Part shown: positions 2,263 through 31,844 of the stretch, piece by piece
Layout of the letters: each line of letters begins with the position of its first letter
Position numbering within the stretch: position 1 is the first letter of the stretch
NCBI GenBank assembly: GCA_017394445.1
Contig: JAFPYT010000347.1
Coordinates: forward strand, 1-59,739
Length of the DNA stretch: 59,739 nt
Reading direction: 5' to 3'
DNA from: Bacteroidales bacterium
GTDB taxonomy: Bacteria; Bacteroidota; Bacteroidia; Bacteroidales; UBA3824
Position numbers and translations under genes: made by a program
Notes under the pieces: generated by a model
The model's input: the letters and a program-made list of their open reading frames with translations, nothing else
What the model was told of the DNA's origin: nothing
The model's database searches: none

Positions 2263-4974
2263 TTATTTCCCAAACTTCCACCAATCCAATCTTACTTCTC
2301 CATTAGCCTTTTGGAATGTGATGTAGAGGTCGTGGAGGCCTTTGGCGCCGGGGATTTTGGTGGTGACTGCTTTGTATTTTTCTACGTTGCCGGTAGGTTT
2401 TACCAAAACTTTGCCAATTTCAGCACCGTTGGGCGAATCTATGCGGAGCGAAATTTCTACTGTGCCGGTGGCGGCGGCGGTTATCGAAAACGATGTTGCT
2501 CCGTTGGCAAAATCTACACCGCGAACTCGGATGTATTCGCCATTGTCAATGTCGTTGACATACATATTGCGCTTGCCGGTTGAGTAGGGCATTTTTTCTA
2601 CCACGCCGGTGTTTTCAATTCCGATTTTGGCAGATTTTAGTCCGTATCCCCACGCCATTGTTTCGGCTTCAACACGTGAAAAGGGGTTGAGAGGTTTTAC
2701 CTGTTTGAGAGGCTGTTGGTCGAGCCAGTAGGGCACTTCCTCAATGCTTCCGTCGGGATTGTAGTGCATTTCGCCAACTGTTACCGAGCGGCGTTCGTGG
2801 TGTTCCCAGAGGTCGATGTGCATAAGGTCGTAGTTTTGTCCAAAAATGTAGGTTTTGCCCTTAAAATCAGCAATTCCGGGGTGATTGCCACGGTCGCGCT
2901 GTGTGGGACGCATTATGTAGCCGGTGCTTTTCCACGGTCCTGTTGGGTTATCGCTCATTGCATAGCCCAAACCCTCTGGACAGCAGGTAGATGCAAATCC
3001 GAGATAGTATTTTGAACCTCGGCGGTAAAACCAAGGGCCTTCCTGATAATTTTCGATGTGAGGCAAACGTACCACGCTGTCTTTCAACGAAATCATATCG
3101 TTATTTAATCGTGCGTAAAATGTGTGAGGATTGCCCCAATACATATACGCCTGACCGTCGGTGTCGGTGAATACTGAGGGGTCGATGTCGTACCAGTTGC
3201 TCTGATCCCAAACGAGGGGCTTGCCGAGCGGGTCTTTAAAAGGTCCGTAGGGCGAATCTGCCACCAAAACGCCAATTCCGTGACCGTGCAGAGGTGCGTA
3301 GAGATAGTATTTGCCGTTGCGTTCTACCACTTGGATAGCCCATCCGCCATTGTCGCGACTACGCCACGAAAAATCTTTCAACGATGCCACTGCGCCGTGC
3401 TCTGTCCAGTTTACCATATCGGTGGTGGAATAGAGCAGCCAATCGTACATAAAGAAACCAGCCGAACTCTTTTCGTTGGGGTCTACGATGTGCTCAGGCG
3501 ATGCGTCGTGCGAACAGAAAAGGAACAAAGTGTCGCCAATAACGAGCGGCGAAGGGTCGGCGGTGTATTTGGTTTGGAACGCGGGCATATTGCACTGCTC
3601 AATTCCGCGCATCTCCCAAAAATCGAGGTTGAACAGTTCGGGGCCTTTTCTTCCTGAAAACACAAAATAAACATCGTGAACGCCCTCAGCCTTGCCCACG
3701 CAGTCAACAGCAAAGGTCTTGAAATTTTCCCAACCGCCAGTGCCGTCAATTTGCAATGCTGCCACAAGAGTGCCACGGATGCTGTCGAGACGAACTTCTA
3801 TTTTGCCGCCACGCAATCCGCTTGCCGCCGACGCGCTAAACACACGGGGAAAGTTTTTACCAAAGTCTACATTTTGCAATTTTATGTAATCGCCATTGTG
3901 AATGTTACTTACATAAACGCCCTGTTTGTCGTTTTGGTAGGTTTTTACTCCTTTGGAAAAAGCCATTGTTTCCGCCTGAACTTTTCTAAAAGGATTAAAA
4001 GTGGCGATAGGTTTTACGCCTTCGTCGGTGGGCATAATTTTGGGAAACGAACCGTCGGAATTATACTTAAACTCCTCAACAGCAATGCTTCTGCCAAATC
4101 CTCCGCCACCGGGAAGTTTGCCCGTGTGATAAAAGAAATACGAATGACCCTTGTAGTCGATAACGCCGCAATGGTTTGTAAACGAGCCAGTTTCGCACAA
4201 TGGCATAATTTCGCCGGCATATTTCCAACCAGAAGTGATTTTGTCGCTAACCGAATACGAAATATGTTCAGGAACGCCTCCCGCAGCGTAGAGCAACTGA
4301 TATTTGCCGTTTCGCTTGGTGAGCCAAGGACCTTCCACATAGCAGTCTTTGTATTTTTTTGTGGAATCGCGCTGATTCATTTTGGGTGCTCCAAAAGCCT
4401 CCTCGGTCATATCCAACTGTCCGAGACCGCCGCTGTACGAAATCATATCTTCGTTGAGTTTCAGGTAGTAACATTGCGGATTACCCCACATAAGCCAAGC
4501 CTGATTGTCGTCGTCGATAAAAACTGTGGGGTCGATATGATCCCAACTTCCGTTTTCAAAAAGGGGTTTGCCTATGGCGTCTTTAAAACCCGAAGTAGGA
4601 TTGTCGGAAACAGCCACGCCTATTGCCATTCCGCCCGAAATTTTAGAATGAGCGCAAATGTACCAATAGAATTTTCCGTTTCGGTAGATGGTTTGCGAAG
4701 CCCAAGCGCGGTCGTCGGCCCACGAAAAAGTTTCAAGGGCAAGTGGCGAACCGTGGTCGGTGTAGTTTACCATATCGGTGGTGGAATACACGCGCCATTC
4801 TTGCATCCAAAAAAAGTCGGCATTGTCCTCATCGTGACCAGTGTAAACGTAGAGGGTGTCGTTGTGAACCATTGGCGCAGGGTCGGATGTAAACCACGTT
4901 TGCACCACGGGGTTTTGGGCGGATAAGCCTGCCGCCGTCAACATTGATGTAATCAATAATAAGTGTCTTTTCAT
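2263..4974 (-). CDS. Secreted tandem GH43 glycoside hydrolase with CBM6-like modules
   Basis: 903 aa with a signal peptide (MKRHLLLITSMLTAAGLSAQ). Two GH43-like propeller segments are present (DPTVFIDDDNQAWLMWGNP and DPSVFTDTDGQAYMYWGNP). Each is followed by a carbohydrate-binding-like segment (VQAETMAFSKG, VEAETMAWGYG). Confidence 0.85.
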   Translation of the reverse strand: MKRHLLLITSMLTAAGLSAQNPVVQTWFTSDPAPMVHNDTLYVYTGHDEDNADFFWMQEWRVYSTTDMVNYTDHGSPLALETFSWADDRAWASQTIYRNGKFYWYICAHSKISGGMAIGVAVSDNPTSGFKDAIGKPLFENGSWDHIDPTVFIDDDNQAWLMWGNPQCYYLKLNEDMISYSGGLGQLDMTEEAFGAPKMNQRDSTKKYKDCYVEGPWLTKRNGKYQLLYAAGGVPEHISYSVSDKITSGWKYAGEIMPLCETGSFTNHCGVIDYKGHSYFFYHTGKLPGGGGFGRSIAVEEFKYNSDGSFPKIMPTDEGVKPIATFNPFRKVQAETMAFSKGVKTYQNDKQGVYVSNIHNGDYIKLQNVDFGKNFPRVFSASAASGLRGGKIEVRLDSIRGTLVAALQIDGTGGWENFKTFAVDCVGKAEGVHDVYFVFSGRKGPELFNLDFWEMRGIEQCNMPAFQTKYTADPSPLVIGDTLFLFCSHDASPEHIVDPNEKSSAGFFMYDWLLYSTTDMVNWTEHGAVASLKDFSWRSRDNGGWAIQVVERNGKYYLYAPLHGHGIGVLVADSPYGPFKDPLGKPLVWDQSNWYDIDPSVFTDTDGQAYMYWGNPHTFYARLNNDMISLKDSVVRLPHIENYQEGPWFYRRGSKYYLGFASTCCPEGLGYAMSDNPTGPWKSTGYIMRPTQRDRGNHPGIADFKGKTYIFGQNYDLMHIDLWEHHERRSVTVGEMHYNPDGSIEEVPYWLDQQPLKQVKPLNPFSRVEAETMAWGYGLKSAKIGIENTGVVEKMPYSTGKRNMYVNDIDNGEYIRVRGVDFANGATSFSITAAATGTVEISLRIDSPNGAEIGKVLVKPTGNVEKYKAVTTKIPGAKGLHDLYITFQKANGEVRLDWWKFGK

Positions 4975-18717: not shown

Positions 18718-21700
18718 TTACATCCTCACCATTTTTTCAAATTCCTCTTGATTTTCCGAAGCTGAATATTTTGCTACAAATTCGGTGGGAGAGATGCCGT
18801 AGTATTCTTTGAAATGGCTCGAAAAATAACTGTGGCTCGAAAATCCAAGTTTGAACGCTACGTCGGCTACGTTGAGTTTGTTGCGTACCAAAAGTATCGC
18901 TGCCTGACGCATTTTGATTGATTTGATGAGGTTTACGGGCGTGATGTCGAGCAGTTCTTTCAACTTGCGGTTGAGGTGTACGCGGCTGATGCCTACTTTT
19001 GCGCTGAGTTCGTTTACACCGAAATTTGTGTTTTCTAAGTTTTTGTTGATGGTGTCCACTACCTTTTTTAGCAATATCTGGTCGGGACTTTCGGCTTCGA
19101 TTACTGTTTGTGCCGAATGTATGTCGGCTGCCATTCGTGCCGCCATTTTTTCGCGGGTGGTGATGGCGTTGGTAATCGAACTTTTTAGCATATTGATACT
19201 TACGGGCTTGGTAAGGTAATGGTCTACACCAATTTCCACGCAGGTTTGGCGACTTTCTTCGTCGGCTTTGGAGGTGAGCACAATAATTGGTAATAGACTT
19301 GTCTGCGGGTTTTGACGGATTTTTTTGCAGAGGTCGTAGCCGTTGAGTCCGGGCATTACAAGGTCGGTGATTATGGCATCGGGTTTTTCGGCAATTATCT
19401 GGTTGATAGCTTGTTCGGGATGGTTGCATACCACGGGGTTAAACTTGTCGCTTAATGCCATTGATATATAGCCTGTCCATTCCGAATCGTCGTCGATAAA
19501 GAGTATCTTTTTGAGTTTTTTGTTGGTAGTGGTGTCGGCGGGTGTGTCTTGCGCAATATCTACAAATAAATCGTGCTTGGGAGTTTTAACTTCCTCGTTT
19601 TCAGTTTGTTCGTTGATGGTGTAGAATGGCAGCGTAATGGCAAACTCTACGCCTTGTTCTGTGTTGTACGCTTTAATAAAACCTTTGTGTGCGTCGATAA
19701 TCATTTTGGCAATGTGCAGACCTATGCCCGAACCCTCGTGACTGCTGTTGTCGGATGTCTGGTAAAATCGCTCAAATATTTTTTCGCACTCTTCGGGCGG
19801 AATGTGGCTGCCGGAGTTTTCTATTTTGATAGATACAAATGGTTCTTCGGTTTTTTCAATATTAATATTGACAAATCCACCGTCGGGAGTAAATTTAAAC
19901 GCATTCGACAGGATATTAAACACAGCCTTATCGAGATTGTATGGGTCGAAGGCAAATTTTATGTCAAAGTTGTTGGTGTTGAGGTTGATATTGATATTAC
20001 GCATTAGCGACAATTGGTCAAACGATTTTACAATATCGCTGATAAAATCCACAATGTCGGCGTTTTGTAGTTTTAGCACAAATTTGTTGTTGTCGATTTT
20101 GCGGATGTCCATAATTCGGTTTAATTGCGAAGTTACGCGCTGCACATTTCGCCGCATAAGTTGCAGTATAGCCGATTTCTTTTTGTCGTTTTCGGTTTCG
20201 ATAAGCGAGTTGAGAGGTGTTTCTACCAGCGAAAGCGGTGTGCGAATCTCGTGCGAAAGGTTGGTAAACATTTGCAGGCGCATCTCTTTTTTCTGGTTTT
20301 CTTCGCGTTGTATTTTAAGGGTATGTTTGTTTTGCGCTAATGCTTTTATTATCAGTAGTATAATGATACCCACCACTGCGTATGCCAAATATGCCCACCA
20401 AGTGTTGTACCACGGCGGAAGCACCGTTACGGCTATGCTTTTGGATACGCTCTGGGTTTCGTTGTTTTCGATAAAGGCTTTGATTTCAAGGGTGTAATCG
20501 CCTTCGGGAATGTTGGTAAACGACAGTATCCGTGCCAATTGCCTCACGCGGTACCAAGTGTCGTCGAATCCTTTAAGCCGGTATAGGAATTTTATGCGGT
20601 GCTGGTTGGCATATTCGTTGATGCCAAATTGTAGTGTAAACTTGTTTTGGCTGTGTTTCATAGTCATGCGGCTTGCAAGGTTGATGGGTGCGTCGATAAT
20701 GCCCTGCGAATTGCCGAATGTGATGTTTTCGCCTGCCACCGAAAGAGAGTTGAAGTATATTTCGGCGTTGAAAGCGATTTTTTGCAGTCCTTCGGCGGGG
20801 TGGAATATTATCATTCCGTTGTTAGTGCCGAGAAAAAGAGCGCCGTCGTTGCCTTTGTAGATTGCGTTGCTGCAAAATTCGTTGCTTGGCAGTCCGTCCA
20901 TTGTGGTGAATGTTTCGTAGCCGCCTTCTTTTATGGAATAATGCACAAGGCGGTCGTCGGTGCTGTACCAGAGGTTTCCAAAATGGTCGGTGGCCATACT
21001 CAGGATTGTGCCTTTGTGAGCCTTTTCGATAATGCTTGTGAGGGTTTTGGTGTCGGGGTTGTAACGGCATAGCCAATCTTCGCCTCCGAGATAGATGTTT
21101 CCTTCGTTGTCGTCGGTGGCGCAGGCGCACACTTGGTCGGTGATGGTGATGGTGTCGTTTGTGGCGGTGTAAATTATTGTGCTGTTGATCATTACATACC
21201 CGCGTTTGCTTACGTATACGTGGTGCACCCATTGCGGCTGGCTGATGTTGTGTTGCGAGGTTATTTTGCCGTTTTTGAGCGTCAGCACGTGCGTGCCGTT
21301 GCCGAGAGTGCCAGCGTAGAGGGTGTTTGATGCGGTGTCGAATGTCAGGTGCGATATTTTTTGAAATTCGGGATTGGTAAAAAGGTTTTCGATTTTGCCG
21401 TCGGGCTTGCGCACCGAAAGACCTCCGTTGTAGGTGGCAATCCAAAGGTTTCCGTCGTTGTCGGCGGTCATAGCGTTGATAGAGTTGTTTGGCAATCCGT
21501 TTTCGGCAGTGCAGATTCGTGTTTTTTTTCCTCCCTGTTCAAGTTTGATAACGCCTCCGCCATCGGTGCCTGCGTATATTGTGCCGTTACGAGAGCCTAC
21601 AATTGCTGTTACGGGTGCAAGGTTTGGACCAGAACCTTCGTTCATCGCAACGCTTAAAAATGTAAAGTACGCATTACCCCCCCCTATACTATGTTGTTGA

Positions 21701-22740
21701 TTATTAATAATATAGTCGGCTGCCGATTTGGGTACAAACACTCCGCCTTTTTGGTATGCCGCCGCCCAAATGTTGCCTTGTCGGTCTTCAAAAATGTCGT
21801 GTATCTTGCAGTTGTGAAGGTCGATATTGTCGTTGCGCAGCGACGGTGTTATCACTTTTTGGGTGTTGTTGTCGTAGAGCATTAGTCCGTACTCTTCTGA
21901 GCCTATCCAAAATAGGTGGTCGGTGCCTTGCGCCCTCGGATGCATTATTACATTGATGACGCCTGTAATATCGGCTGTGGCTTTGGTGGGTGTAACAATG
22001 TTGTCTTTTTGGTTGTAACGCAGTATGCCTGAATGACTTGTGCCAATAAGTATATCACCTGTTGTGGGCACTTCGGTAACGCTTGTTACTGCACTTGGCA
22101 AAATACCGTCTTGAAAACGTAATGTGCTGCGTGTTAGCGTGTTGAGGTCTATATTTATAAAATTTCCTTCCGAGCTGAATGTCCAAAGATTGTTACGGCT
22201 GTCGATATACATTGCCCCGGGAAACTTGGTATCAATCAGTTGGTTGATAGTGTCGGTTAGCGGTTTTAGAGGTTCAAGTGTGTTGGGGTCTAACGCAGCA
22301 ATGCCGTTACCCGAGCAAGTTACGAGTATTGCGCCGAGTTTTTGGCTCTTTACCACCGACGACACAAAGTAATTGTCTATAACAGTGTCGTTTATGTAAA
22401 CAGGCAACATCTTAAAAGTGTCGGTCATACACTCGTTGAGCACAAGTCCCCGCGATGTGCCAAAAAGTATTCGTTCGCCGTCTAAAAACTCCATACATTT
22501 AACCCACGGCAGAGTAGGGGCGTTGGTATAGCGCAGAGGTTCGCGGCTGAATGTCATTCCGCCATATTTAATTGCTCCGCTTTTGCCTGTAAACCAGACA
22601 TTTCCGTGCGGATCTTGAAAAATCCTATCAATAAGGCTTCCCGGCAATTGGTATTGGCTGTCGAAAAATCTCACTTGCTGTGCTTTGGAGGGCAATGCCG
22701 TTGTTAATAATATAAGGAGCAGGAGGTATACATTTCGCAT
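18718..22740 (-). CDS. Hybrid two-component system sensor kinase/response regulator with AraC-type HTH (PUL regulator, HTCS)
   Basis: 1340 aa. The order is signal peptide, periplasmic propeller-repeat region, TM segment, HisKA (FTNLSHEIRTPLSL), HATPase (GSGIGLHIAKMII), receiver (ILFIDDD...ITDLVMPGLNG), and a C-terminal AraC HTH (GFSSHSYFSSHFKEYYGISP). Confidence 0.92.
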   Translation of the reverse strand: MRNVYLLLLILLTTALPSKAQQVRFFDSQYQLPGSLIDRIFQDPHGNVWFTGKSGAIKYGGMTFSREPLRYTNAPTLPWVKCMEFLDGERILFGTSRGLVLNECMTDTFKMLPVYINDTVIDNYFVSSVVKSQKLGAILVTCSGNGIAALDPNTLEPLKPLTDTINQLIDTKFPGAMYIDSRNNLWTFSSEGNFINIDLNTLTRSTLRFQDGILPSAVTSVTEVPTTGDILIGTSHSGILRYNQKDNIVTPTKATADITGVINVIMHPRAQGTDHLFWIGSEEYGLMLYDNNTQKVITPSLRNDNIDLHNCKIHDIFEDRQGNIWAAAYQKGGVFVPKSAADYIINNQQHSIGGGNAYFTFLSVAMNEGSGPNLAPVTAIVGSRNGTIYAGTDGGGVIKLEQGGKKTRICTAENGLPNNSINAMTADNDGNLWIATYNGGLSVRKPDGKIENLFTNPEFQKISHLTFDTASNTLYAGTLGNGTHVLTLKNGKITSQHNISQPQWVHHVYVSKRGYVMINSTIIYTATNDTITITDQVCACATDDNEGNIYLGGEDWLCRYNPDTKTLTSIIEKAHKGTILSMATDHFGNLWYSTDDRLVHYSIKEGGYETFTTMDGLPSNEFCSNAIYKGNDGALFLGTNNGMIIFHPAEGLQKIAFNAEIYFNSLSVAGENITFGNSQGIIDAPINLASRMTMKHSQNKFTLQFGINEYANQHRIKFLYRLKGFDDTWYRVRQLARILSFTNIPEGDYTLEIKAFIENNETQSVSKSIAVTVLPPWYNTWWAYLAYAVVGIIILLIIKALAQNKHTLKIQREENQKKEMRLQMFTNLSHEIRTPLSLVETPLNSLIETENDKKKSAILQLMRRNVQRVTSQLNRIMDIRKIDNNKFVLKLQNADIVDFISDIVKSFDQLSLMRNININLNTNNFDIKFAFDPYNLDKAVFNILSNAFKFTPDGGFVNINIEKTEEPFVSIKIENSGSHIPPEECEKIFERFYQTSDNSSHEGSGIGLHIAKMIIDAHKGFIKAYNTEQGVEFAITLPFYTINEQTENEEVKTPKHDLFVDIAQDTPADTTTNKKLKKILFIDDDSEWTGYISMALSDKFNPVVCNHPEQAINQIIAEKPDAIITDLVMPGLNGYDLCKKIRQNPQTSLLPIIVLTSKADEESRQTCVEIGVDHYLTKPVSINMLKSSITNAITTREKMAARMAADIHSAQTVIEAESPDQILLKKVVDTINKNLENTNFGVNELSAKVGISRVHLNRKLKELLDITPVNLIKSIKMRQAAILLVRNKLNVADVAFKLGFSSHSYFSSHFKEYYGISPTEFVAKYSASENQEEFEKMVRM

Positions 22741-22842
22741 TATAGTTTTAGTTTTTTATACAGAATTTACAGTTACAGTTTTCAAAATGCAATAATAAAA
22801 GGTTTTTGCTGTAATTGCAAAAATTATTAATAAAAAATTACA

Positions 22843-23994
22843 CTATATCATCAGCAGAATTTTTGCCAATCCAAATCCAAAGTAAGTGCCTATGGCGTAA
22901 CCAAATAGACCAACTGCTATGCCGGGACCTATTACTGCCTTGTTGTGCAATACGCTGCCCATTACCGGTGCAAAGGGCGGACTGCATATCAGCGAAATGC
23001 TTGTGGTGAGGGTGGTGTCGGTGTCTACTCGCATTATGGCGTTGAGCAGCACGTGGAATATCAGTGTGCCAAAGGTTACTATGGTGGTGAAAATAAATAT
23101 GTTGGCATCTACTTCCGACAATACTTTGAGGCTAACTTGCGATGCCACTGCCACGCTGAATATTATGATAAAGAGCGTTCCAAGTTCAAATGTGCGTTTT
23201 ATGGCGCGGACCTTTTTGTTGGTGGAGGCAATTATCGACAGCAGCGAAATTGAGAGTATAAACACCGATTGAAACGCCTCTTTGGGCACGAGTAAAGCAA
23301 TTCCAGCGCCAATGGCAATGATAATAACCGTAAGCAAAAGCGCACGGAAAAGGTCTTTGAGGTTGCTGCGGGTAAATAGTCCGTAAAAAAGTTCGTGGTC
23401 GTGGTTTTCGATTTTGAGGTCTAATTGTTCTTGGTCTTTGTTGTCTTTAAAATCGGGTAGGATAGGGCGGAGGGCTTTTTTGCCGGCAATTATTACAAAA
23501 AATAGGTAAATTGCGCTTGACACGGTGCTGTAAGCCGAAACGAGAATGTAAGTGGCGTCGTCTACTCCGAGTGCAATTTTTAGCGATGCAAGATTGGCAT
23601 TGCCGCCTGTGTATAGTCCTGTTAACATTCCGCCAATAGATGCGTAAGTGGTTGAATTGTCGCCTTTCCCGTAAATAAAATAGCCAATTGCCACTGCCAA
23701 AGCGCAGCCCAAAAGTCCCGCAATGGTAGATTTGATAAACGGTGGTGCAAGCCTTGTCCACGATTTTATATCTGCCGAAAACAGCAGCAGAGGTATTGCA
23801 AACGGTATTGCCACGGTTGCCACGGTGGTTTGCAGTTTGTGGGTTGCCTCGTCGTCGGGAATTATGCCTGTAAGTCCGAGAGCGCAACCAAAAATGTAGG
23901 CTATGATTATGCCTCCCACCTTGTTGAGCGCGGGACTTTTGTAAGTGAGCCACATTATCAGCAGCGGAAGTATGCAGATGAGGATAACTAACAT
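22843..23994 (-). CDS. Polytopic integral membrane protein (DUF819-like)
   Basis: 383 aa and hydrophobic throughout, with about 10 or more TM segments. The DUF819 assignment is from memory of similar Bacteroidales proteins. Confidence 0.45.
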   Translation of the reverse strand: MLVILICILPLLIMWLTYKSPALNKVGGIIIAYIFGCALGLTGIIPDDEATHKLQTTVATVAIPFAIPLLLFSADIKSWTRLAPPFIKSTIAGLLGCALAVAIGYFIYGKGDNSTTYASIGGMLTGLYTGGNANLASLKIALGVDDATYILVSAYSTVSSAIYLFFVIIAGKKALRPILPDFKDNKDQEQLDLKIENHDHELFYGLFTRSNLKDLFRALLLTVIIIAIGAGIALLVPKEAFQSVFILSISLLSIIASTNKKVRAIKRTFELGTLFIIIFSVAVASQVSLKVLSEVDANIFIFTTIVTFGTLIFHVLLNAIMRVDTDTTLTTSISLICSPPFAPVMGSVLHNKAVIGPGIAVGLFGYAIGTYFGFGLAKILLMI

Positions 23995-24104
23995 CGTATT
24001 TTAACTTTTAAAAAAAAGTGCAATAATAAGACGATTTTTTTGAATTTTAAAGAGATTTTTTTTGATAAAACCTTCAAAATATTTGTTTTTTACAAAAAAT
24101 ACCA

Positions 24105-24112
24105 TATATTTG
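24105..24112 (+). promoter_or_regulatory. Bacteroides-type -7 promoter box TATATTTG
   Basis: Matches the TAnnTTTG consensus and lies 32 nt upstream of the ATG at 24144. Confidence 0.5.
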
Positions 24113-24143
24113 TAAGCAAATAATAACTCTAAACATTCACAAT

Positions 24144-24719
24144 ATGGGATTATTCGACGACCTCAGAAAAGCCGCCAATTCGCTTATCAATGCGGCTGAA
24201 AATGCGGCTAAAAACACCCCTCAGGTGCAAGGCCCAAATGCTAACGAACTAAAAAATGCCGCTGACCAACTGCGCAATACTCTTGGCGGACTTGTAAACA
24301 ACACACAGTCAGCCCCCAAGCCGCAACCCAAACCCGCGCAGCCTCCGCAACAGCCGCAGCCAAAACAACCCGAAGTTTACGACGGTGGCACGTTTTGGGA
24401 TTACGAAGATAATATTCCTATCACAAAGAAACTCAGTGATATACTTGCCGAAAAATTCTCGCAATACGAGGTTCGTCGCGATGTTTCGCCCACCGAAATT
24501 GGCGGCACTGGCAAGTTTATGAATTATTCGTTTGGTATTTACCAAGGAGGCTCGCCAAAATTGTTTATAATGATAACTGGCAAAACCACTTTGAGTAACC
24601 GCCTTTACCGTTGGTCGAAAGAGCAGGCGCAGAAAGCCGGCGTTACGTTGATAAACTTTGTGGAGCATTTTCCCAACCGTCCCGAATATGTGTCGGAACG
24701 TCTTGCTAAGTATTTGTAA
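24144..24719 (+). CDS. Hypothetical protein with a P/Q-rich linker
   Basis: 191-aa ORF with a low-complexity stretch (PKPQPKPAQPPQQPQPKQP) followed by a globular C-terminal half. A promoter box lies upstream. I recognise no family. Confidence 0.5.
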   Translation: MGLFDDLRKAANSLINAAENAAKNTPQVQGPNANELKNAADQLRNTLGGLVNNTQSAPKPQPKPAQPPQQPQPKQPEVYDGGTFWDYEDNIPITKKLSDILAEKFSQYEVRRDVSPTEIGGTGKFMNYSFGIYQGGSPKLFIMITGKTTLSNRLYRWSKEQAQKAGVTLINFVEHFPNRPEYVSERLAKYL

Positions 24720-24819
24720 ATAAAGAATTTGTCCTAATATTATAAAAAAAGAGAAAAACGCGGAGCAATCCGCACCTGCGGCGGACAAAGCGTGACACAT
24801 TAAAATAGTTTTGCAGGTA

Positions 24820-24932
24820 ACTGTGTAACGTTCAGTCTGGTATCATAAGCAATTGCTTATTTCAAAGCATTTTTTTCTCACCCCGCACATCCTCTGTACA
24901 TCCCCGCACATCTAAGGATGTACGGGGTTTTT
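24820..24932 (+). ncRNA. Candidate small RNA (about 110 nt) bounded by a -7 box and an intrinsic terminator
   Basis: TAGTTTTG at 24806-24813 matches TAnnTTTG. A 16-nt perfect palindrome ATAAGCAATTGCTTAT lies at 24845-24860. The terminator has an 11-bp stem 24902-24912 / 24917-24927 (one mismatch) plus TTTTT at 24928-24932. A duplicate copy of the 5' arm lies at 24881-24892. There is no ORF. Confidence 0.25.
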
Positions 24933-24972
24933 GAAATATCGTCTTACAGACGATTTGTAATTATTTATAATT

Positions 24973-25440
24973 ATGAAGTGTAAAATATTATTTGCTTTTT
25001 TTATAGCCTTAATGCTCGGCACAGTATCGTGTAGAGATATGCTGATGGATCAGGCGGCGCAAAAAATCAACGCCAAATGCCCGTCGAAAAGTTTCAAGGG
25101 TTTTGTGCTCAATAGCGTTGTGTATCAAGATAATAACTTTGTCTTTGACGTCGCCTTAGAAGATGATGTTATCAAAGAGACCCTTGCTCAATATGGCATC
25201 AGCGAGAGTATGCTCTATTTCGCGCTTGATTTGCTGTCCGACCAATTTACTGCCAAGGGTTCGGTTAAAAACTTTGCCAAAACGCTTGTAGACCTCTCAG
25301 GACGCGATGAAAACTACAAAACGCTCATCGACCTCTGCGTTTCCGAAAAGGTTGGCGCAAAATTCAACCTTCAAATTGGCAACCGCCACAAGTCGCTACT
25401 GATAACAAGTGATGATATTTCCGATGTGGTAACTAATTGA
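24973..25440 (+). CDS. Hypothetical lipoprotein
   Basis: 155 aa with a signal peptide and lipobox (LMLGTVSC). I recognise no family. Confidence 0.55.
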   Translation: MKCKILFAFFIALMLGTVSCRDMLMDQAAQKINAKCPSKSFKGFVLNSVVYQDNNFVFDVALEDDVIKETLAQYGISESMLYFALDLLSDQFTAKGSVKNFAKTLVDLSGRDENYKTLIDLCVSEKVGAKFNLQIGNRHKSLLITSDDISDVVTN

Positions 25441-25463
25441 TAATCAAGATTGATTTTGAAACC

Positions 25464-25534
25464 GCAACCAAAAGTGGGTATTTTACCCCACTTTTGGTTA
25501 TGGTTTTTAAAAAACTGCAACCAAAAGTGGTATG
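25464..25534 (+). promoter_or_regulatory. Three-part repeat (A, A', A) forming mutually exclusive hairpins over the RT start codon
   Basis: A is GCAACCAAAAGTGGGTA at 25464-25480. A' is TACCCCACTTTTGGTT at 25484-25499, the complement of A. A second copy of A, GCAACCAAAAGTGGTA, lies at 25517-25532 and ends on the A of the RT ATG (25532-25534). The A/A' hairpin has 15 bp with a 1-nt bulge and is followed by a TTTTT tract. Confidence 0.5.
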
Positions 25535-26740
25535 AATAGTTTACTAAATTCCCTCTCCGACCATTCTATTTGGCTCGAATTCCTAAAAATCCGAACCGAG
25601 GATGGGCATACCAAAAAAAAGGAACTTGCGCGGTTGAAGGCGTTTGTAGAGAATAAACTTTATGTTGATATTGCAAATAACATTAATTCAGGTAATTATG
25701 TGTTTGATTTTCCTGTAAAGACCGAAATCAACAAGAGCGGCTCCACCAAAAAACGCATTGTCTATCGTTTTGATAGTGAGGAAACTTTGGTGCTGAAACT
25801 ATTGGCGCACCTTTTATATAAATACGACAATAAGTTGAGTCCCGCTTGCTATTCGTTTCGCAAACATCTTACCGCCAAAAATGCTTTTGATAAAATTACT
25901 TCAATTCCGCATCTTGCTGATAAATACGTGCTTAAAGTAGATATTCACAACTATTTTAATTCTATTCCTTCACAACGTCTTGTAGATGAAATCAAAAATG
26001 TGATTGACGACGACCAGCAGTTGTGTCAACTTCTTGTAAAACTTGTATTTGCCAATAAAGCATACTATTACAACGAAAACGGCGAGCGGCTTTTGATTAC
26101 CGAAAACCGAGGTGCTATGGCGGGTGTGCCTGTGTCGGCTTTTTTTGCAAATATCTACTTAACCTCTATGGATGAGGCGTTTACAAAGATTGGTGTGCCA
26201 TATTTCCGTTATTCTGACGATATAATTGTTTTTGCCGATAATGGGGATGATTTACAGCGTTATAAAAATTTGATTTTTAGTATTATAGGAGAAAAAGGGT
26301 TAACAATTAATCCCACAAAAGTGAAAATTTCTGCACCCGGCGAGGAGTGGGAATTTCTTGGTTTTTGTTATCGCAATGGCAATGTTGATTTGGCTTCGGC
26401 AACGTTGCACAAGATAAAATCAAAGATAAAGCGTAAGGCTAAGGCTTTGATGCGCAGCAAAATACGCAAGGACAGAAGTTTCGATGACGTGGCTGCCGAC
26501 CTTATCGACCATTTTAACCGTAAATTCTACCGAGAGTTTTCGGACAATGATTTTACTTGGTGCCGATGGTTTTTCCCAGTTATCACCACCGCCGAAAGTC
26601 TTAAAGCAATCGACAACTATCTTGTTGAGTATGTGCGATTTTTGCGCAGTGGACGGCATACCAAAAAGAATTTCGTGGTTGATTACACCGAAATCAAAGA
26701 ATTAGGATTCAAGAGCCTTGTAAATGCATATTATGGATAA
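25532..26740 (+). CDS. Stand-alone reverse transcriptase (RNA-directed DNA polymerase), unclassified lineage
   Basis: 402 aa. RT motifs run in order: KKRIVYRF, LVLKLLAHLL, YVLKVDIHNYFNSI, RGAMAGVPVSAFFANIYL, and the catalytic YFRYSDDIIVFA (YSDD = nt 26210-26221). These are followed by GLTINPTKVKI and WEFLGFCY, then a thumb-like tail of about 120 aa. Confidence 0.85.
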   Translation: MNSLLNSLSDHSIWLEFLKIRTEDGHTKKKELARLKAFVENKLYVDIANNINSGNYVFDFPVKTEINKSGSTKKRIVYRFDSEETLVLKLLAHLLYKYDNKLSPACYSFRKHLTAKNAFDKITSIPHLADKYVLKVDIHNYFNSIPSQRLVDEIKNVIDDDQQLCQLLVKLVFANKAYYYNENGERLLITENRGAMAGVPVSAFFANIYLTSMDEAFTKIGVPYFRYSDDIIVFADNGDDLQRYKNLIFSIIGEKGLTINPTKVKISAPGEEWEFLGFCYRNGNVDLASATLHKIKSKIKRKAKALMRSKIRKDRSFDDVAADLIDHFNRKFYREFSDNDFTWCRWFFPVITTAESLKAIDNYLVEYVRFLRSGRHTKKNFVVDYTEIKELGFKSLVNAYYG

Positions 26741-26759
26741 TTCAATGATGAAAAATGTT

Positions 26760-29570
26760 TTACAAAAGTTCAAACAGCCTGCCCACCATTTCGGCTTCGG
26801 TGGCGTCTTTTTTCAGTCCGTACAATCCCAAAACAATGACATCCAATTCGCGGTGAGCCTCGGCAAGGTCGGTGAACAATAGGTCGAGGTTTTCTCCGTA
26901 AAGTGTGGCAAGCGACGCACCCTGCGAGAGATATTTTTCGCGGACGTCGAGGATTTTTTGGGCGGCGGTTGGGATGCGGGCTGCCAGCCCGCTATTGGCG
27001 GACGAGCCGTCCACATTCCATTCAGGCCACGGAAAATTGTTATAGACAATATCCTTGCTGTAACGGTAATCAGATTTCAACCGTCCCGCCACAACGCGCA
27101 TCCACGCATTATGAACTATCGAGGTGAGAATGCCAAATTCGTAGAGCGTGGCGTTGGGGATGATTTGGACGGCATTGGATGCGATTACGTCTTTGCTCAT
27201 ATATCCAATCGGAATATATTTGCGTTTCTCCGACGAATGACACGGAATCAACAAGAAATTAGAATCAGGCATATTTTCTATATGAAACCGAGTAGGTTTT
27301 TCTGCAAGTTTTCTTGTGCCCTCGCTTTTGCTTGCAAGCCGGAATTCTTTCACAGCCTTGATACGTTCCAAACATAACGGCATTTTTGCTAATTCCATTA
27401 AATCTGCATCGCCAAGCCAAAGGCAATAGCGTTTCCCATTATTGAGAAACTCTTCTGCGCCATAATAGGGGCGGAAATATTTTTTTGCATTTGGTTCAAG
27501 CGTTATGAAGTCGTGCATTTGTTCAGATGTAAACAAATAATGACCATTATCAATTGGCTTGCTTCCTATTCCAATTTCTGACACATTGCAAATAGGTTTG
27601 TTACGGCTTTCAACAAAAACATTTTTTCCATCAAGAAGATAGGCGTTTATATTTTTTGCTGTTTCGATTGTGCCGTCGGGGTTGTAGATGTGTTTGGTTG
27701 GTAGAGACGGTGTGCACACCGTCTCTACACCGGCAACCGAAAATCCGACAATCACACAATGCACGTGCGCCATTCCAACAGAATCGCTTTCCCAACGGAA
27801 TGTGCGGTAGGCAAAATTAATTACCAATCCGTCTTCAAAAAGCGGTTTCCAAAGATTTGCCACCTGTTCGCCTTGACAAATGGAATTGGTGGATACAAAG
27901 GCGCAACGGATTTTGGGATTATGTTTTATATAATCAAAAGCCTTTTTGTACCAACACGTTACATAATCCATATTACCAACATTTTTCCAATCCTTGCCAA
28001 AAATGCTGATGACATCCTCTTTTTGATTTGCGTTCATAATCCTTGCACCAACAAACGGCGGATTACCAACGATATAATCCAAATCTGACGGATTGACATA
28101 ATCTTCCCAATTGATGCGCAATGCGTTGACACAGTGGATTGTGGTGATGTCGTTGAGGGGCAATTCGGAAATGTTTTCGCCGAGGATTTGTTGCGTTTCG
28201 TGCAACATTTGGTTTTGAGCAATCCACAGGGCGGTCTTGGCGGTATCAACGGCAAATTCGTTGATTTCAAACCCGTGGAATTGCGATAATGATACCTTTA
28301 TTGACGACGATAATCCCGCAGTATGCAATTCGTATAGAATTTTGTTTTCTAATCGGCGGAGTTCCATAAAACAGTATGTCAAGAAATTGCCCGAACCGCA
28401 CGCCGGGTCGAGTATGCGGATTGAAGACAATTCGTCTTGAAGGCTCAGCAGAGCATCTCGTTTTGTGTTGAGGTCGGGAATTTTGGTTGCGTCGCTCAGT
28501 TGGGAGCGCAATCTGTCAAGAAACAACGGTGCAAGAGCCTTGTCGATATTGTCGGTGGTGGTGTAGTGCATACCGCCTTCGCGACGGTCTTTTGACGAAA
28601 GCGTACTCTCAAACATCGCCCCGAAAATTGCAGGGTTTATCGGGCTCCAATCAAATCCGAGCGAAAACCTTTGGGTGATATTGAAGGCAATGTTTTGTGA
28701 CAACTTCGGCAACTTGACATTGGCGGCAAAAAGTCCGCCGTTGGTATATGGAAATTCATTAAGCCTCACGTCCTCGCTGTCGCGTTCCGATGGTGGCGTG
28801 TTCAGTGTCTGAAACAACAATTTCAAATGCAGTCGGAACTCGTCGCTGTTTTGAATGAAGGCTTTGAGATAATTGCCAAACATATCCTTACGGCTAAACA
28901 CCAAAGCATCCTCGGCATAAAGGCAGAACACGAGTCTGACACAAAACACATTGATATTATGGAACAATTCGAGCGTCATCTCGTCCATGGAGTATTGGCG
29001 AAGGATGTCATTATAGAGTTCGCCGATTTGGAGCGCGGCGGCCTTGGAAACTGCGGTTTCGAGTGCCGTTACCGAAGATTCCTTGTCCAAAAGGAATTTA
29101 AGACGGTAATAGTTTTGTGAAACTCCGTTCTCGGTAAAAGGGATTATGTACGGCGGCTCCAACGGCTTGTTGCGGTCGTGGATTTCGATGGTGCGGAAGT
29201 TGGAGCATACGATGTAACGCGCCTTTTCGTTGAGCGGCAGCCAATTGTCGTAACGCTCAGCCTGTTGGAATGGCGTGAGCATATCGCCGCCCGACTGCGA
29301 CTCGGGCTTGTCGAGGTCGATGTGGCTACTTTTCTGTTCTATCAATACTTTGGTATGCGGAATATAAGCGTCGATAAATTTGGTGCTGCCCGAGGCGGGG
29401 TCTTTCACTTGTTTTTCGTAAATGATGGTATTAGGCAAGTCGATTTGCGGGTCAAAACAGCGCAGAATCGAGTTCCAAAACTGTTGACATTGCCCCTTTT
29501 CGTATCCTTCCTTGTTGTTCCAAAATTTGGTTTGAACAATTAATTTCTGACGTATATCCTTATCTTCCAT
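26760..29570 (-). CDS. MmeI-like type IIL/IIG restriction-modification enzyme (fused nuclease, N6-adenine methyltransferase and TRD)
   Basis: 936 aa. The N-terminus has a PD-ExK-like block (FIDAYIP...VLIEQKS). SAM motif I is LDPACGSGNFL and motif IV is VGNPPFVG (about nt 28047-28070). A long C-terminal specificity region follows. No separate R or S gene lies nearby. Confidence 0.75.
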   Translation of the reverse strand: MEDKDIRQKLIVQTKFWNNKEGYEKGQCQQFWNSILRCFDPQIDLPNTIIYEKQVKDPASGSTKFIDAYIPHTKVLIEQKSSHIDLDKPESQSGGDMLTPFQQAERYDNWLPLNEKARYIVCSNFRTIEIHDRNKPLEPPYIIPFTENGVSQNYYRLKFLLDKESSVTALETAVSKAAALQIGELYNDILRQYSMDEMTLELFHNINVFCVRLVFCLYAEDALVFSRKDMFGNYLKAFIQNSDEFRLHLKLLFQTLNTPPSERDSEDVRLNEFPYTNGGLFAANVKLPKLSQNIAFNITQRFSLGFDWSPINPAIFGAMFESTLSSKDRREGGMHYTTTDNIDKALAPLFLDRLRSQLSDATKIPDLNTKRDALLSLQDELSSIRILDPACGSGNFLTYCFMELRRLENKILYELHTAGLSSSIKVSLSQFHGFEINEFAVDTAKTALWIAQNQMLHETQQILGENISELPLNDITTIHCVNALRINWEDYVNPSDLDYIVGNPPFVGARIMNANQKEDVISIFGKDWKNVGNMDYVTCWYKKAFDYIKHNPKIRCAFVSTNSICQGEQVANLWKPLFEDGLVINFAYRTFRWESDSVGMAHVHCVIVGFSVAGVETVCTPSLPTKHIYNPDGTIETAKNINAYLLDGKNVFVESRNKPICNVSEIGIGSKPIDNGHYLFTSEQMHDFITLEPNAKKYFRPYYGAEEFLNNGKRYCLWLGDADLMELAKMPLCLERIKAVKEFRLASKSEGTRKLAEKPTRFHIENMPDSNFLLIPCHSSEKRKYIPIGYMSKDVIASNAVQIIPNATLYEFGILTSIVHNAWMRVVAGRLKSDYRYSKDIVYNNFPWPEWNVDGSSANSGLAARIPTAAQKILDVREKYLSQGASLATLYGENLDLLFTDLAEAHRELDVIVLGLYGLKKDATEAEMVGRLFELL

Positions 29571-29615
29571 AGTGATGTGTTATTCTCCTGATTGTTTTTA
29601 AATGAGATTTTAAAC

Positions 29616-30110
29616 TTATTTTTCAATCATATTTAGCAATTGTTCGTATAGTCTTTCGCTAATATGTCGTCCTGAATCTCTTAGAATTTCTATTGACTGT
29701 TTTATTTCTTCTTTTGTAATAATGGAATCTTGGTATGCTATGCCTAAAATACCAATAGTTCCCATAATTTTTATTCCCATACGGGTAGCCACTTCGCGAC
29801 CACGCACTTCGTCCATCAGAAGTAAATCTGCTTTTCCGTTGTCAGAAAGGAAAATGGCTTCGCTTTCTCCCAAATCAAGCCCGGCAGAACGGCGTAGGAG
29901 CGTAACATATCCTTCGTCAATTTTATTTACAACATATATAAAAGGTGTTTTTTTTATAATTTCCGCCTCAGCAAGGTATTTGGGATTGTCAGTAAGTTCT
30001 GCAAAAACACCTTTGGGAATCTGTACAGAACCGAATAGTTGTTGGAGTAAATCTAAACGATTAATTTTCAACAATGATATCAAAGGCGTTGTATCGGAAA
30101 TAACTATCAT
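29616..30110 (-). CDS. DUF3368-family PIN-like toxin
   Basis: 164 aa. The N-terminus MIVISDTTPLISLLKINRLDLL is typical of DUF3368/PIN-like proteins. Its start overlaps the upstream antitoxin stop by 4 nt. Confidence 0.7.
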   Translation of the reverse strand: MIVISDTTPLISLLKINRLDLLQQLFGSVQIPKGVFAELTDNPKYLAEAEIIKKTPFIYVVNKIDEGYVTLLRRSAGLDLGESEAIFLSDNGKADLLLMDEVRGREVATRMGIKIMGTIGILGIAYQDSIITKEEIKQSIEILRDSGRHISERLYEQLLNMIEK

Positions 30111-30397
30111 ACCCTTTCTTTTTTTAATGATCGGAATGTGCTTATATCATTCATCACTTCGCTCAGGTCGATATCAAAATAAGGAAACCCCATATTATCG
30201 TACAAATCAATTAAATCCATTTTTTTGATACCTAAAATTTCGGCTGCTCGTCCGTGCGAGATTATTTTGTTGTGGATATAGGGATACAATAGTAAGGCGT
30301 TGCGTTTGAGTTGGTTATCGTTTTCAAACGTATAATTGTCGGAAAGGTAGGTTTCCATAGCCTTAGGTACGGTTATTTGAATTGTAGCATATTCCAT
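30107..30397 (-). CDS. UPF0175-family antitoxin
   Basis: 96 aa. It sits upstream of and overlaps the DUF3368 gene, which is the classical UPF0175/DUF3368 pairing. An HTH-like segment is present (ISHGRAAEILGIKKMDLIDL). Confidence 0.6.
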   Translation of the reverse strand: MEYATIQITVPKAMETYLSDNYTFENDNQLKRNALLLYPYIHNKIISHGRAAEILGIKKMDLIDLYDNMGFPYFDIDLSEVMNDISTFRSLKKERV

Positions 30398-30420
30398 AAA
30401 GCCTCCTTGTTATTTATCTG

Positions 30421-30428
30421 CAAATATA
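30421..30428 (-). promoter_or_regulatory. -7 promoter box TATATTTG for the TA operon
   Basis: The reverse complement of CAAATATA matches TAnnTTTG. It lies 24 nt upstream of the ATG at 30397. Confidence 0.45.
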
Positions 30429-30464
30429 AACGAAATTTGTTAAAAATGCAAATTATTAGATAGC

Positions 30465-30493
30465 AAAAAAAGAGGCACGATTTATCGTGCCTC
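30465..30493 (-). terminator. Intrinsic terminator of the alpha-oxoamine synthase gene
   Basis: Perfect 9-bp stem GAGGCACGA 30472-30480 / TCGTGCCTC 30485-30493. On the minus strand it is followed by TTTTTTT (plus-strand A-run 30465-30471). Confidence 0.75.
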
Positions 30494-30518
30494 GTATATT
30501 CAAAAAAATCAGAGTCTG

Positions 30519-31844
30519 TTAGAATTCCACTTTGCCTGATTTGAGTTTTGTCCACGGGTCAACCTTGTCGGCTTTGTAGCGACCTGCGTCGAGTTTTGCC
30601 TTGCAAGCCTTGAATGCTGCAATGGTGCGGTCTACCTGTTCCAAAGTGTGTGCTGCGGTAGGAATTACACGGAACATTACTGTGCCTTTGGGAACAACAG
30701 GGTAAACAACTATCGAACAGAAAATGCCGTAGTTTTCGCGGAGGTCTAAAAGCATATTGGTAGCCTCGGCTGTTTGAGCCACGTCGGTAGCGTTGGGGTC
30801 GAGGTGCATATATACCGGAGTTACAGGCGATTGAGTCTTGCCTATATCGAAGCCCTCTTTTTTGAAACCGCTTTGGATTGCGTTAACAATTTTCCAAAGG
30901 TTTTCGCGGTATTTGGGGTTCTGCTCTATGAGGTCGAGACGTTTCAAGTGGCCAACAACCATAGGCATAGGCAATGATTTTGCGTAAATCTGCGAACGGA
31001 GGTTCATGCGGAGGAAGTCAACGATGTTTCTCGGACCAGAGATAAAACCGCCGATACCAGCCATAGCCTTAGCGAATGTGGCAAAATAGAGGTCTACTTT
31101 GTCTTGAACGCCAAAATGCTCGCCTGTGCCGCCGCCGTTGGGACCCATTGTGCCGAATCCGTGAGCGTCGTCGATAAGAAGGCGGAACTGATATTTTTCT
31201 TTCAAGTCGGTGATACCCTTCAAGTTGCCGAGGTCGCCTGCCATACCGAACACGCCTTCGGTGATAACGAGGATAGAACCGCCGGTTTCAGCCACTTTCT
31301 TGGTTGCAAGTTTAAGTTGCTTTTCGAGTTTTTCCATATCGTTGTGAGGGTATACGTAACTCATTTTTTCGCCGCCGCATTTTGCTTTGTGGAGGAAAAT
31401 ACCGTCCATAATGCAGGCGTGAGCCTCGTAGTCGTATACGATAACGTCGTTGCGGTCAACGATTGAGTCGATAATCGAAACCATAGCCTGATAGCCGAAG
31501 TTTACCACAAAGGCAGCCTCTTTTTTGGCGTGAGCGGCAAGACGGCGTTCCAACTCTTCGTGGAGCGTTGTCTGACCCGACATCATACGTGCGCCCATAG
31601 GAGCGGCAAGACCGTATTTTGCAGCACCCTCAGCGTCGGCTTTGCGTACTTCGGGGTCGTTGGCAAGACCAAGGTAGTTGTTGAGCGACCAGTTTAATAC
31701 GGGTTTTACGCCGAAAGGTGTTCTAAAATTCATTTCAGGACCTATTTCACCTTCCAATTTCGGGAACATAAAATAGCCGTCGCCGCCCTGCTGATATTTG
31801 CCAAGGTCGGTAACTTTCTTTAATACTTTTTCGAATAAATCCAT
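30519..31844 (-). CDS. PLP-dependent alpha-oxoamine synthase family acyltransferase (KBL/SPT/cysteate-acyltransferase-like)
   Basis: 441 aa with class-II aminotransferase-fold blocks (NYLGLANDP, LLIDDAHGFG). The PLP-lysine context is ATFAKAMAGIGG. Substrate cannot be assigned from the sequence alone. Confidence 0.75.
   Translation of the reverse strand: MDLFEKVLKKVTDLGKYQQGGDGYFMFPKLEGEIGPEMNFRTPFGVKPVLNWSLNNYLGLANDPEVRKADAEGAAKYGLAAPMGARMMSGQTTLHEELERRLAAHAKKEAAFVVNFGYQAMVSIIDSIVDRNDVIVYDYEAHACIMDGIFLHKAKCGGEKMSYVYPHNDMEKLEKQLKLATKKVAETGGSILVITEGVFGMAGDLGNLKGITDLKEKYQFRLLIDDAHGFGTMGPNGGGTGEHFGVQDKVDLYFATFAKAMAGIGGFISGPRNIVDFLRMNLRSQIYAKSLPMPMVVGHLKRLDLIEQNPKYRENLWKIVNAIQSGFKKEGFDIGKTQSPVTPVYMHLDPNATDVAQTAEATNMLLDLRENYGIFCSIVVYPVVPKGTVMFRVIPTAAHTLEQVDRTIAAFKACKAKLDAGRYKADKVDPWTKLKSGKVEF

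Follow-up and report, generated by a model that had tools for sequence, protein, structure and literature searches.

A UG26 reverse transcriptase of a Bacteroidales bacterium is encoded with the RT-5 RNA and a conserved small protein

The stretch of DNA considered here (the window) comprises 59,739 nucleotides of contig JAFPYT010000347.1 (GenBank assembly GCA_017394445.1), from a Bacteroidales bacterium of the lineage UBA3824. It encodes a 402-aa reverse transcriptase (RT) that belongs, by profile score, to UG26, one of the Class 2 UG/Abi groups. The same strand carries, 5' of the RT gene, the structured non-coding RNA (ncRNA) RT-5 and an open reading frame (ORF) for a small, unannotated protein, both of which recur with UG26 RTs in other bacteria. 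The locus is thus a member of two catalogued, functionally uncharacterised families, UG26 and RT-5, which are here linked to each other and to the small protein. The window copy is a derived variant, as an inserted gene separates the RNA from the RT. It is probable (roughly 0.6) that the RT is the last gene of a three-part module, consisting of small protein, RT-5 ncRNA, and RT, which makes RNA-templated, protein-primed complementary DNA (cDNA) for defence.

A first-pass annotation of the window, made from the sequence alone, had described the RT as an orphan of uncertain class that fits no standard RT context. The class can now be named. The PADLOC RT_UG26 profile matches the protein with 495.1 bits (E 3e-149), and residues 3-401 align with profile positions 2-393 of 398, while the runner-up profiles reach 125 (generic RT), 118 (UG27), 112 (UG4), 103 (UG17), and 100 bits (Drt9). 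This placement in UG26 rests on a comparison of profile scores. All NCBIfam models score under their cut-offs. Pfam finds RVT_1 alone (residues 66-278) and no extra known domain fused to it, as is characteristic of the Class 2 RTs of Mestre et al. 2022 (PMC9226505). The first-pass annotation was right to propose a stand-alone RT of the UG/Abi or defence-associated RT (DRT) type, and the motifs it read are present in the translation: YSDD at residues 227-230 (nt 26210-26221), NAFDK at 117-121, and WEFLGFCY at 273-280. Its spacers also measure as given, with 91 nt upstream of the RT (25441-25531) and 19 nt downstream, before a convergent 936-aa ORF (26760-29570, minus strand).

A further motif, SLVxEYY, is conserved near the RT C-terminus. 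In the window, it reads SLVNAYYG and includes Tyr400-Tyr401 (nt 26729-26734). Variants in other members are EFY, EYW, and EYH, and at least one tyrosine is present in each RT whose C-terminal motif fell within the examined part of the sequence. An AlphaFold2 (AF2) model of the window RT (mean predicted local distance difference test score, pLDDT, 91.6) is a compact group II-like RT with a thumb and a C-terminal helical region. The solved folds nearest to this model are the GsI-IIC group II intron RT (template modelling score, TM, 0.77), G2L4 (0.72), DRT9 (0.70), and DRT2 (0.59). A profile search against PDB sequences returns similar relatives, with group II intron RTs first (GsI-IIC, 98.8 bits).

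UG26 was defined by Mestre et al. 2022 as one of nine Class 2 UG/Abi groups, with 35 members, an occasional Vsr-like (COG2852) neighbour (9 of the 35), and no ncRNA given. The searchable literature mentions it only there and in one metagenomic survey, and no experimental work on it was found. The window RT resembles those members in its end-to-end RT_UG26 match and its lack of a fused domain. It differs from the published description in its conserved partners, which are here RT-5 and a small unannotated protein whose fold weakly resembles that of endonucleases, and in that relatives of the RT occur in at least 413 species genomes. The closest homologues come from rumen metagenome-assembled genomes (MAGs). 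The viral contigs of IMG/VR contain no close relatives of the RT, and a phage origin was rejected on this basis. The RT is under purifying selection, with a ratio of non-synonymous to synonymous substitution rates (dN/dS) of 0.10-0.24.

In all, 80 loci with relatives of the window RT were fetched from the 413 species genomes having one. They come chiefly from rumen and gut Bacteroidales, Lachnospiraceae, other Clostridia, and Erysipelotrichaceae. Loci L002-L005 are the closest relatives of the window, and their RTs include one that is 96% identical to the window RT (L002) and one that is 73% identical (L005).

The RT-5 RNA is the cognate ncRNA of the UG26 RT. In the window, the Rfam model RF03026 matches over all of its positions (1-104 of 104) with 85.8 bits (E 2e-16), where the gathering score is 45.7. 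The RT-5 core lies on the RT strand and ends 657 nt 5' of the RT gene. It is the sole Rfam match, both in the whole window at gathering thresholds and in an E-value scan of positions 22000-31000. The Rfam scan also found RT-5 in 16 of 16 related loci scanned. A purpose-built covariance model found it in 75 of the 80 loci and in the window, always on the RT strand and 5' of the RT; the window RNA scores 117 bits with this model, which is among the best of all matches. Three of the five loci without a match are truncated by a contig end. The other two are L007 and L036, where no RT-5 RNA was detected in the available 5' sequence (697 nt and 164 nt, respectively). L007 comes from the same MAG as L001, and could represent either an assembly artefact or a second copy that lacks the RNA.

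The arrangement in most genomes is compact. Between the small ORF and the start of the RNA there are 13-25 nt, and between the end of the RNA and the RT start codon 10-35 nt. In Erysipelotrichaceae and Solobacterium (L029, L040, L044, L055, L062, L069, L073, and L079; around 3990-4001), the RT ATG lies ~10 nt past the 3' strand of the closing helix P0 (ttttttcatgATG), and there is no Shine-Dalgarno sequence. The RT start codon of these loci stands at the base of the RNA closing helix.

RT-5 was reported by Weinberg et al. 2017 (PMC5737381) as one of 19 'RT' motifs found near RT genes, its function being unknown; a role in retrons or diversity-generating retroelements (DGRs) was speculated for these motifs. 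No connection between RT-5 and UG26 was found in the searchable literature. The window RNA agrees with the Rfam family in its full-length match above the gathering score and in its location 5' of an RT gene. It departs from the family in its distance of 657 nt from the RT and in the gene that lies between them.

The RNA is more elaborate than the Rfam model, which is 104 nt long and has a structure line shown without a pseudoknot and without P0. The closing helix P0 encloses, in order, a small hairpin (P1), a pseudoknot strand, a long hairpin (P2), a short hairpin (P3), and a single-stranded junction, UUCAAAGC(nn). In an alignment of 76 sequences, 96.5% of the cells are paired and compensatory changes occur in 23 of the 28 pairs, with shuffled and slid controls all far below. 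The pseudoknot is 98.9% paired and four of its six pairs covary, one with GC in 49 sequences and AU in 21, and another with CG in 62 and UA in 11. This covariation is independent evidence, because the pseudoknot was left out of the search model. A minimum free energy fold of window positions 24745-24940 recovers P0, P1, P2, and P3 (z = -4.2).

P0 is a polypurine/polypyrimidine helix of 12-20 bp, with a median of 16 bp and at least 10 bp in 70 of 74 distinct sequences. The consensus of its purine-rich 5' strand, AAAAAGAAAGAGAAA, is the exact complement of that of its pyrimidine-rich 3' tail, UUUCUCUUUCUUUUU. Matched changes on both strands are found in L064 (GAGAGGGAAA / UUUCCCUCUC), L041 (GGGAGAGAAA / UUUCUCUCCC), and L045 (GAAAGGGAAA / UUUCCCUUUC), and many Clostridiales have a one-base deletion on both strands. 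Cognate strands outpair foreign ones in 69 of 73 cases (Wilcoxon p ~1e-11, relatedness not corrected). Beyond pairing, the P0 sequence itself (GAAAGAGAAA / UUUCUCUUUC) is conserved from Bacteroidales to Firmicutes.

Two further elements are also conserved. A yGC lies directly 3' of the P0 5' strand, and the junction between P3 and P0 has a constant length of 7-10 nt and a nearly invariant sequence. Of 73 sequences, 57 match an AAGC...AAGC pattern, which shows a single co-varying change, in L058 and L075. In these two loci, P3 and the junction are variant and have AACC in place of AAGC at each site. A tertiary contact between AAA and UUU of the junction and the P2 loop was considered and dropped, as inspection of the alignment by eye showed no covariation.

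The third component is the small protein. Its ORF lies directly 5' of RT-5, on the same strand, in 66 of the 80 loci, and five loci are truncated upstream. The small ORF and the RT are the only conserved neighbours across the related loci. The protein family has ~390 representative clusters. Two distant members were followed to their own loci (L088 and L089), where the small ORF is again followed by the RT-5 RNA; in L089, whose contig is long enough, a UG26 RT (497 bits) follows too. Both this RNA and this ORF lie 5' of the 155-aa ORF that precedes the RT in the window and had been overlooked in the first-pass annotation, whose description of the RT as an orphan does not survive their discovery. 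That annotation had also named a well-characterised class with its partners in the locus as the finding that would speak against its reading; a class and partners have been found, and UG26 is catalogued, not well characterised.

At its N-terminus, the small protein has a conserved helix, MGLFDxLxK. A variable linker of low complexity follows, in which some members have a zinc ribbon, and the C-terminal part is a conserved alpha/beta domain of ~105 aa. This domain carries the motifs VSPxxIGGxGKF, PKLFIM, RxYRWSKEQA, INF, and PN..YI..RL.KYL. The AF2 model gives it the order alpha-beta-beta-beta-alpha-beta-alpha, with pLDDT >95 for residues 90-191. No Pfam match was found for any member of the alignment, and the protein has no NCBIfam, PADLOC, PHROGs, or PDB-sequence profile match. 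Foldseek likewise returns nothing significant (best E 0.13). Its weak top matches are PD-(D/E)XK-fold nucleases (TnsA, splicing endonuclease, EcoT38I, SfsA, and RecU), and the alignment shows no conserved acidic/Lys catalytic triad. From these comparisons, the small protein is probably a non-catalytic nucleic-acid-binding partner or effector. Like the RT, it is under purifying selection (dN/dS 0.08-0.21). Two very long proteins, P0269 (3197 aa) and P0341 (2204 aa), match the small-protein profile 10-11 times each at positions ~97-146, the Gly-rich GGxGKF region; these multiple matches may be a motif repeat or a compositional artefact.

The history of the window copy explains its unusual appearance. 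An alignment of the window with L002-L005 shows that L005 has the compact ancestral arrangement, while the window, L003, and L004 have a hairpin and a lipoprotein gene between RNA and RT. By insertion, this lineage gained a terminator hairpin and a lipoprotein gene unrelated to the system, followed later by a second hairpin element. The RT therefore looks orphaned because the inserted gene displaced the RNA and the small ORF from it.

The terminator-like hairpin occurs in the window and L002-L004, and is absent from L005 and all distant loci. Its 5' arm, CCCCGCACATC (24881-24912), is duplicated 21 nt apart in the window; L004 also has the duplication, and L002 and L003 have a single copy. The 155-aa gene is present in just two of the 80 related loci, L003 and L004, and L002 has since lost most of it. 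Homologues elsewhere (L081-L083) have neither an RT nor an RT-5 RNA nearby. The 155-aa ORF was consequently rejected as a component of the system. It is itself under purifying selection (dN/dS 0.09), so that RT, small ORF, and inserted gene all fall within a dN/dS range of 0.08-0.24. Its synonymous divergence (dS) from L003 and L004 is ~1.05, while that of the flanking genes is 0.06-0.29. The gene thus behaves as a foreign cassette, since its dS is far above that of its flanks, a sign that a cassette within the module may have been exchanged by allelic replacement or recombination.

The second hairpin element (70 nt) is found in the window and L002 only, and is absent from L003, L004, and all distant loci. 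The 91-nt spacer before the RT, whose hairpin and direct repeats had resembled a rolling-circle or attenuator feature, was for this reason rejected as an ncRNA forming a core part of the system. The element has two copies of AAAC[C/T]GCAACCAAAAGTGG, 53 nt apart, and no further copy of it occurs elsewhere in the window. The second repeat copy could pair with the 3' arm of the hairpin, giving alternative structures right before the RT ATG. The element could act as an attenuator-like control of RT expression.

The insertion has also left a mark on the RNA. P0 in the window has only 8 bp (-8.1 kcal/mol), down from an ancestral 15 bp, and 96% of foreign 3' strands pair better with the window 5' strand than its own does. 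The window 3' strand is weak because the insertion cut the outer part of it. The positions of all these features are given in Table 1.

Table 1. Features of the UG26 locus and its surroundings in the window
Feature	Position (nt)	Strand	Remarks
Small partner protein, unannotated	24144-24719	+	191 aa; conserved 5' of RT-5
Structured ncRNA: Rfam RT-5 core (24770-24874) and closing helix outside the Rfam model	24751-24879	+	RF03026 match
P0, closing helix	24751-24758 with 24872-24879	+	8 bp in the window
P1, small 5' hairpin	24760-24773	+	Outside the Rfam model
Pseudoknot, ACCUGC with GCAGGU	24774-24779 with 24813-24818	+	5' strand pairs with the P2 apical loop
P2, long hairpin	24782-24839	+	
P3, short hairpin	24845-24860	+	
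Single-stranded junction, UUCAAAGCA	24861-24871	+	
Terminator-like hairpin: CCCCGCACATC (duplicated), TAAG, GATGTACGGGG, TTTTT	24881-24932	+	Lineage-specific
Predicted lipoprotein gene, insertion	24973-25440	+	155 aa; signal peptide ending ...LGTVSC
Hairpin, 13-bp stem and T-run, flanked by direct repeat AAAC[C/T]GCAACCAAAAGTGG	25454-25530	+	Lineage-specific
UG26 (Class 2 UG/Abi) reverse transcriptase	25532-26740	+	402 aa, ATG start; PADLOC RT_UG26 495 bits
Type IIG (MmeI-family) restriction-modification enzyme	26760-29570	-	Pfam; PADLOC 1002 bits
PDC-S70 pair: DUF3368 PIN-like and UPF0175	29616-30397	-	PADLOC E 2e-40 and 6e-07

The first-pass annotation had placed the RT next to a restriction-modification enzyme and a toxin-antitoxin pair, and this is borne out by the type IIG enzyme and the PDC-S70 pair. 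Together with the RT, they form a small defence island, in which three defence or candidate-defence modules follow one another. At other loci, defence-profile matches among the immediate neighbours amount to ~8-9 of 87, a modest enrichment. Family membership, the island context, and this enrichment suggest that the module itself functions in defence. Further upstream, positions 18718-22740 (minus strand) encode a 1340-aa hybrid two-component sensor with histidine kinase, receiver, and AraC-type helix-turn-helix domains. Such hybrid sensors are typical of Bacteroidota, in keeping with the Bacteroidales origin to which the closest RT homologues point.

How the module might work can be proposed by analogy with its characterised relatives. 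According to a recent preprint (bioRxiv 10.64898/2026.06.29.735271), the characterised Class 2 UG RTs (DRT2, DRT3a, DRT9, and DRT10) use an adjacent ncRNA as both scaffold and template, the common rule being a short single-stranded template between two RT-anchored stems; C-terminal priming may be a broader Class 2 strategy. DRT9 is primed from Tyr496/498 in the tail ...SLNYDYE (PMC12483538), and DRT10 from a C-terminal Ser or Tyr (PMC12632851). RNA-templated, protein-primed synthesis is proposed for UG26 because the junction between P3 and P0 and the SLVxEYY motif are compatible with these Class 2 features. The RT would bind the RNA, which would act as scaffold and template. The candidate template is UUCAAAGC(nn), framed by P3 and P0, which would be copied over and over, and the candidate primer is a tyrosine of SLVxEYY. 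The predicted product is single-stranded DNA that is repetitive and linked to protein. In the window, the template would most simply be read as A-B-A' in the form UU-CAAAGCA-UU, a speculative reading that gives repeats of ~9 nt with the sequence 5'-TGCTTTGAA-3'. This DNA, alone or with the small protein, would mediate anti-phage defence.

A more specific version of this proposal can be offered only tentatively, and the odds are against its holding in every part. UG26 with RT-5 might be a fourth kind of ncRNA-templated Class 2 defence RT, making Tyr-primed tandem-repeat DNA of ~9-10 nt and conserved sequence (unit ...GCTTTGAA...), which would be read out or regulated by a non-catalytic, endonuclease-like small protein, with the RNA acting in trans. 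An RNA of ~130 nt with a closing helix, a pseudoknot, and a stem-flanked candidate template recalls the telomerase RNA core.

Among characterised systems, DRT10 (UG17; PMC12632851, bioRxiv 10.64898/2026.06.29.735271) offers a close parallel. It too is a tripartite module with a Class 2 RT and an upstream structured ncRNA. A short single strand lies between two stems of its RNA, and its RT has a conserved C-terminal hydroxyl residue after a helix. The UG17 profile is among the runners-up for the window RT, with 103 bits to the 495 of UG26. The two systems differ in order, which is RNA, SLATT, and RT in DRT10, and protein, RNA, and RT here. The partner protein here lacks transmembrane segments and a SLATT domain, and neither PADLOC nor Pfam matches it. 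The pseudoknot, the polypurine/polypyrimidine closing helix, and the high conservation of the candidate template also set the UG26 RNA apart.

DRT9 (UG28; PMC12483538), which synthesises poly-dA, has an ncRNA that, like RT-5, lies upstream of the RT; in DRT9, it serves as scaffold and template. Its priming tail ...SLNYDYE may be compared with ...SLVNAYYG in the window RT, and the folds are similar (TM 0.70). However, UG26 RTs are ~100 aa shorter, and the small protein is an extra component here. There is also no evident single-stranded poly-U template in RT-5, whose U-rich 3' tail is paired in P0.

Several observations weigh against the proposed mechanism. By sequence and fold, the nearest solved relatives of the RT are group II intron RTs and G2L4, not DRTs. 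Only ~10% of the immediate neighbours at other loci match defence profiles, and many loci lie amid housekeeping genes. The A-A' microhomology is just UU...UU, a trivial match where U is abundant. A longer repeat, the AAGC...AAGC pattern, was rejected as an A-B-A' template, as it fails in L024/L041, L045/L032, and L088, and an alternative hairpin explains it equally well. The junction is far more conserved in sequence than the reported DRT10 template loops, and could be a protein-recognition element instead of a template. Nine loci (L012, L022, L031, L039, L042, L052, L058, L075, and L076) have the RNA and an intact RT and lack the small ORF, with housekeeping genes upstream, so that the protein is not universally required. 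The 8-bp P0 might mean that the window copy is impaired. Finally, templating, priming, and the defence role rest on analogy, and in the searchable literature no UG26 system comes with data on expression, cDNA, or phage challenge.

Some of these observations would fit a different function, in which RT-5 is mainly a cis-regulatory leader or autoregulatory site on the RT mRNA and the RT is a housekeeping or DNA repair enzyme resembling G2L4. The RNA stops 10-35 nt before the RT start in most loci, and at 10 nt, with no Shine-Dalgarno sequence, in Erysipelotrichaceae. Housekeeping genes flank most loci, with a synteny common to 18 of them, and group II intron RTs and G2L4 are, as noted, the nearest solved relatives. 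This explanation is nevertheless unlikely. In the window lineage, a terminator hairpin, a gene, and a second hairpin stand between RNA and RT, yet the RNA core is intact and high-scoring and the genes are under purifying selection. This argues for action in trans, and not as a leader only. Moreover, a typical leader is less elaborate than this RNA, which at ~130 nt has four helices and a pseudoknot and is shared across phyla, and in every characterised Class 2 UG RT the upstream RNA is a template (bioRxiv 10.64898/2026.06.29.735271).

A retron-like system is an improbable alternative. RT-5 would then be an msr/msd RNA in which P0 places a conserved G, whose 2'-OH primes branched multicopy single-stranded DNA (msDNA), and the small protein would be the effector. 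The layout has much in common with retrons: an ncRNA 5' of the RT, ends paired in a closing helix, the yGC after the P0 5' strand, and an accessory ORF. A retron function had indeed been speculated for the RT motifs by Weinberg et al. 2017 (PMC5737381). The window RT, however, falls outside the retron clade. The retron motifs NAxxH and VTG are absent, their positions reading NAFDK and LGFCY, and the conserved C-terminal Tyr motif resembles the protein primers of DRT9 and DRT10. PADLOC retron RT profiles give at most 66 bits, against 495 for UG26, and NCBIfam retron_St85 gives 71.6 bits with a cut-off of 235, in agreement with the first-pass annotation, which had not considered the RT a retron.

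The possibility that the RT is a true orphan or unclassifiable, the remnant of a degraded group II intron, or a DGR RT can be given hardly any weight. Among solved structures, group II intron RTs and G2L4 do match best in sequence and fold, with GsI-IIC as the top structural match, and the group II RT/maturase model TIGR04416 matches partially. Yet its 111 bits are far under the 300-bit cut-off, and in place of an intron RNA the locus has a dedicated small ncRNA. A group II intron remnant was rejected, as Rfam finds no ribozyme domains anywhere in the window. A DGR was rejected too: a repeat search at a minimum of 35 nt over positions 21000-31000 (~5 kb each side) returned no repeat resembling a template repeat/variable repeat (TR/VR) pair beyond chance. 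In both respects the first-pass annotation had drawn the same conclusion. The end-to-end UG26 match and the presence of the partner RNA and ORF speak against an orphan. The three-part module with RNA-templated, protein-primed synthesis remains the preferred reading of the locus.

The association described here ties UG26 to RT-5, a strongly covarying ncRNA described in 2017, as well as to a small protein that is conserved with it. A pseudoknot and a closing helix are added to the RT-5 model, and there are testable predictions as to which segment is copied, which tyrosines prime, and what repeat results. In annotation work, the window illustrates that a seemingly partnerless RT may have an ncRNA that was displaced by an inserted gene, and searches for ncRNAs should therefore extend beyond the adjacent spacer. 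The Class 2 UG RTs characterised so far each synthesise DNA in a distinct and unexpected way, from the assembly of a gene (DRT2) and the production of poly-dA (DRT9) or telomerase-like repeats (DRT10) to the use of a protein template (DRT3). The UG26 locus is a well-defined candidate for another unusual mode of DNA synthesis.

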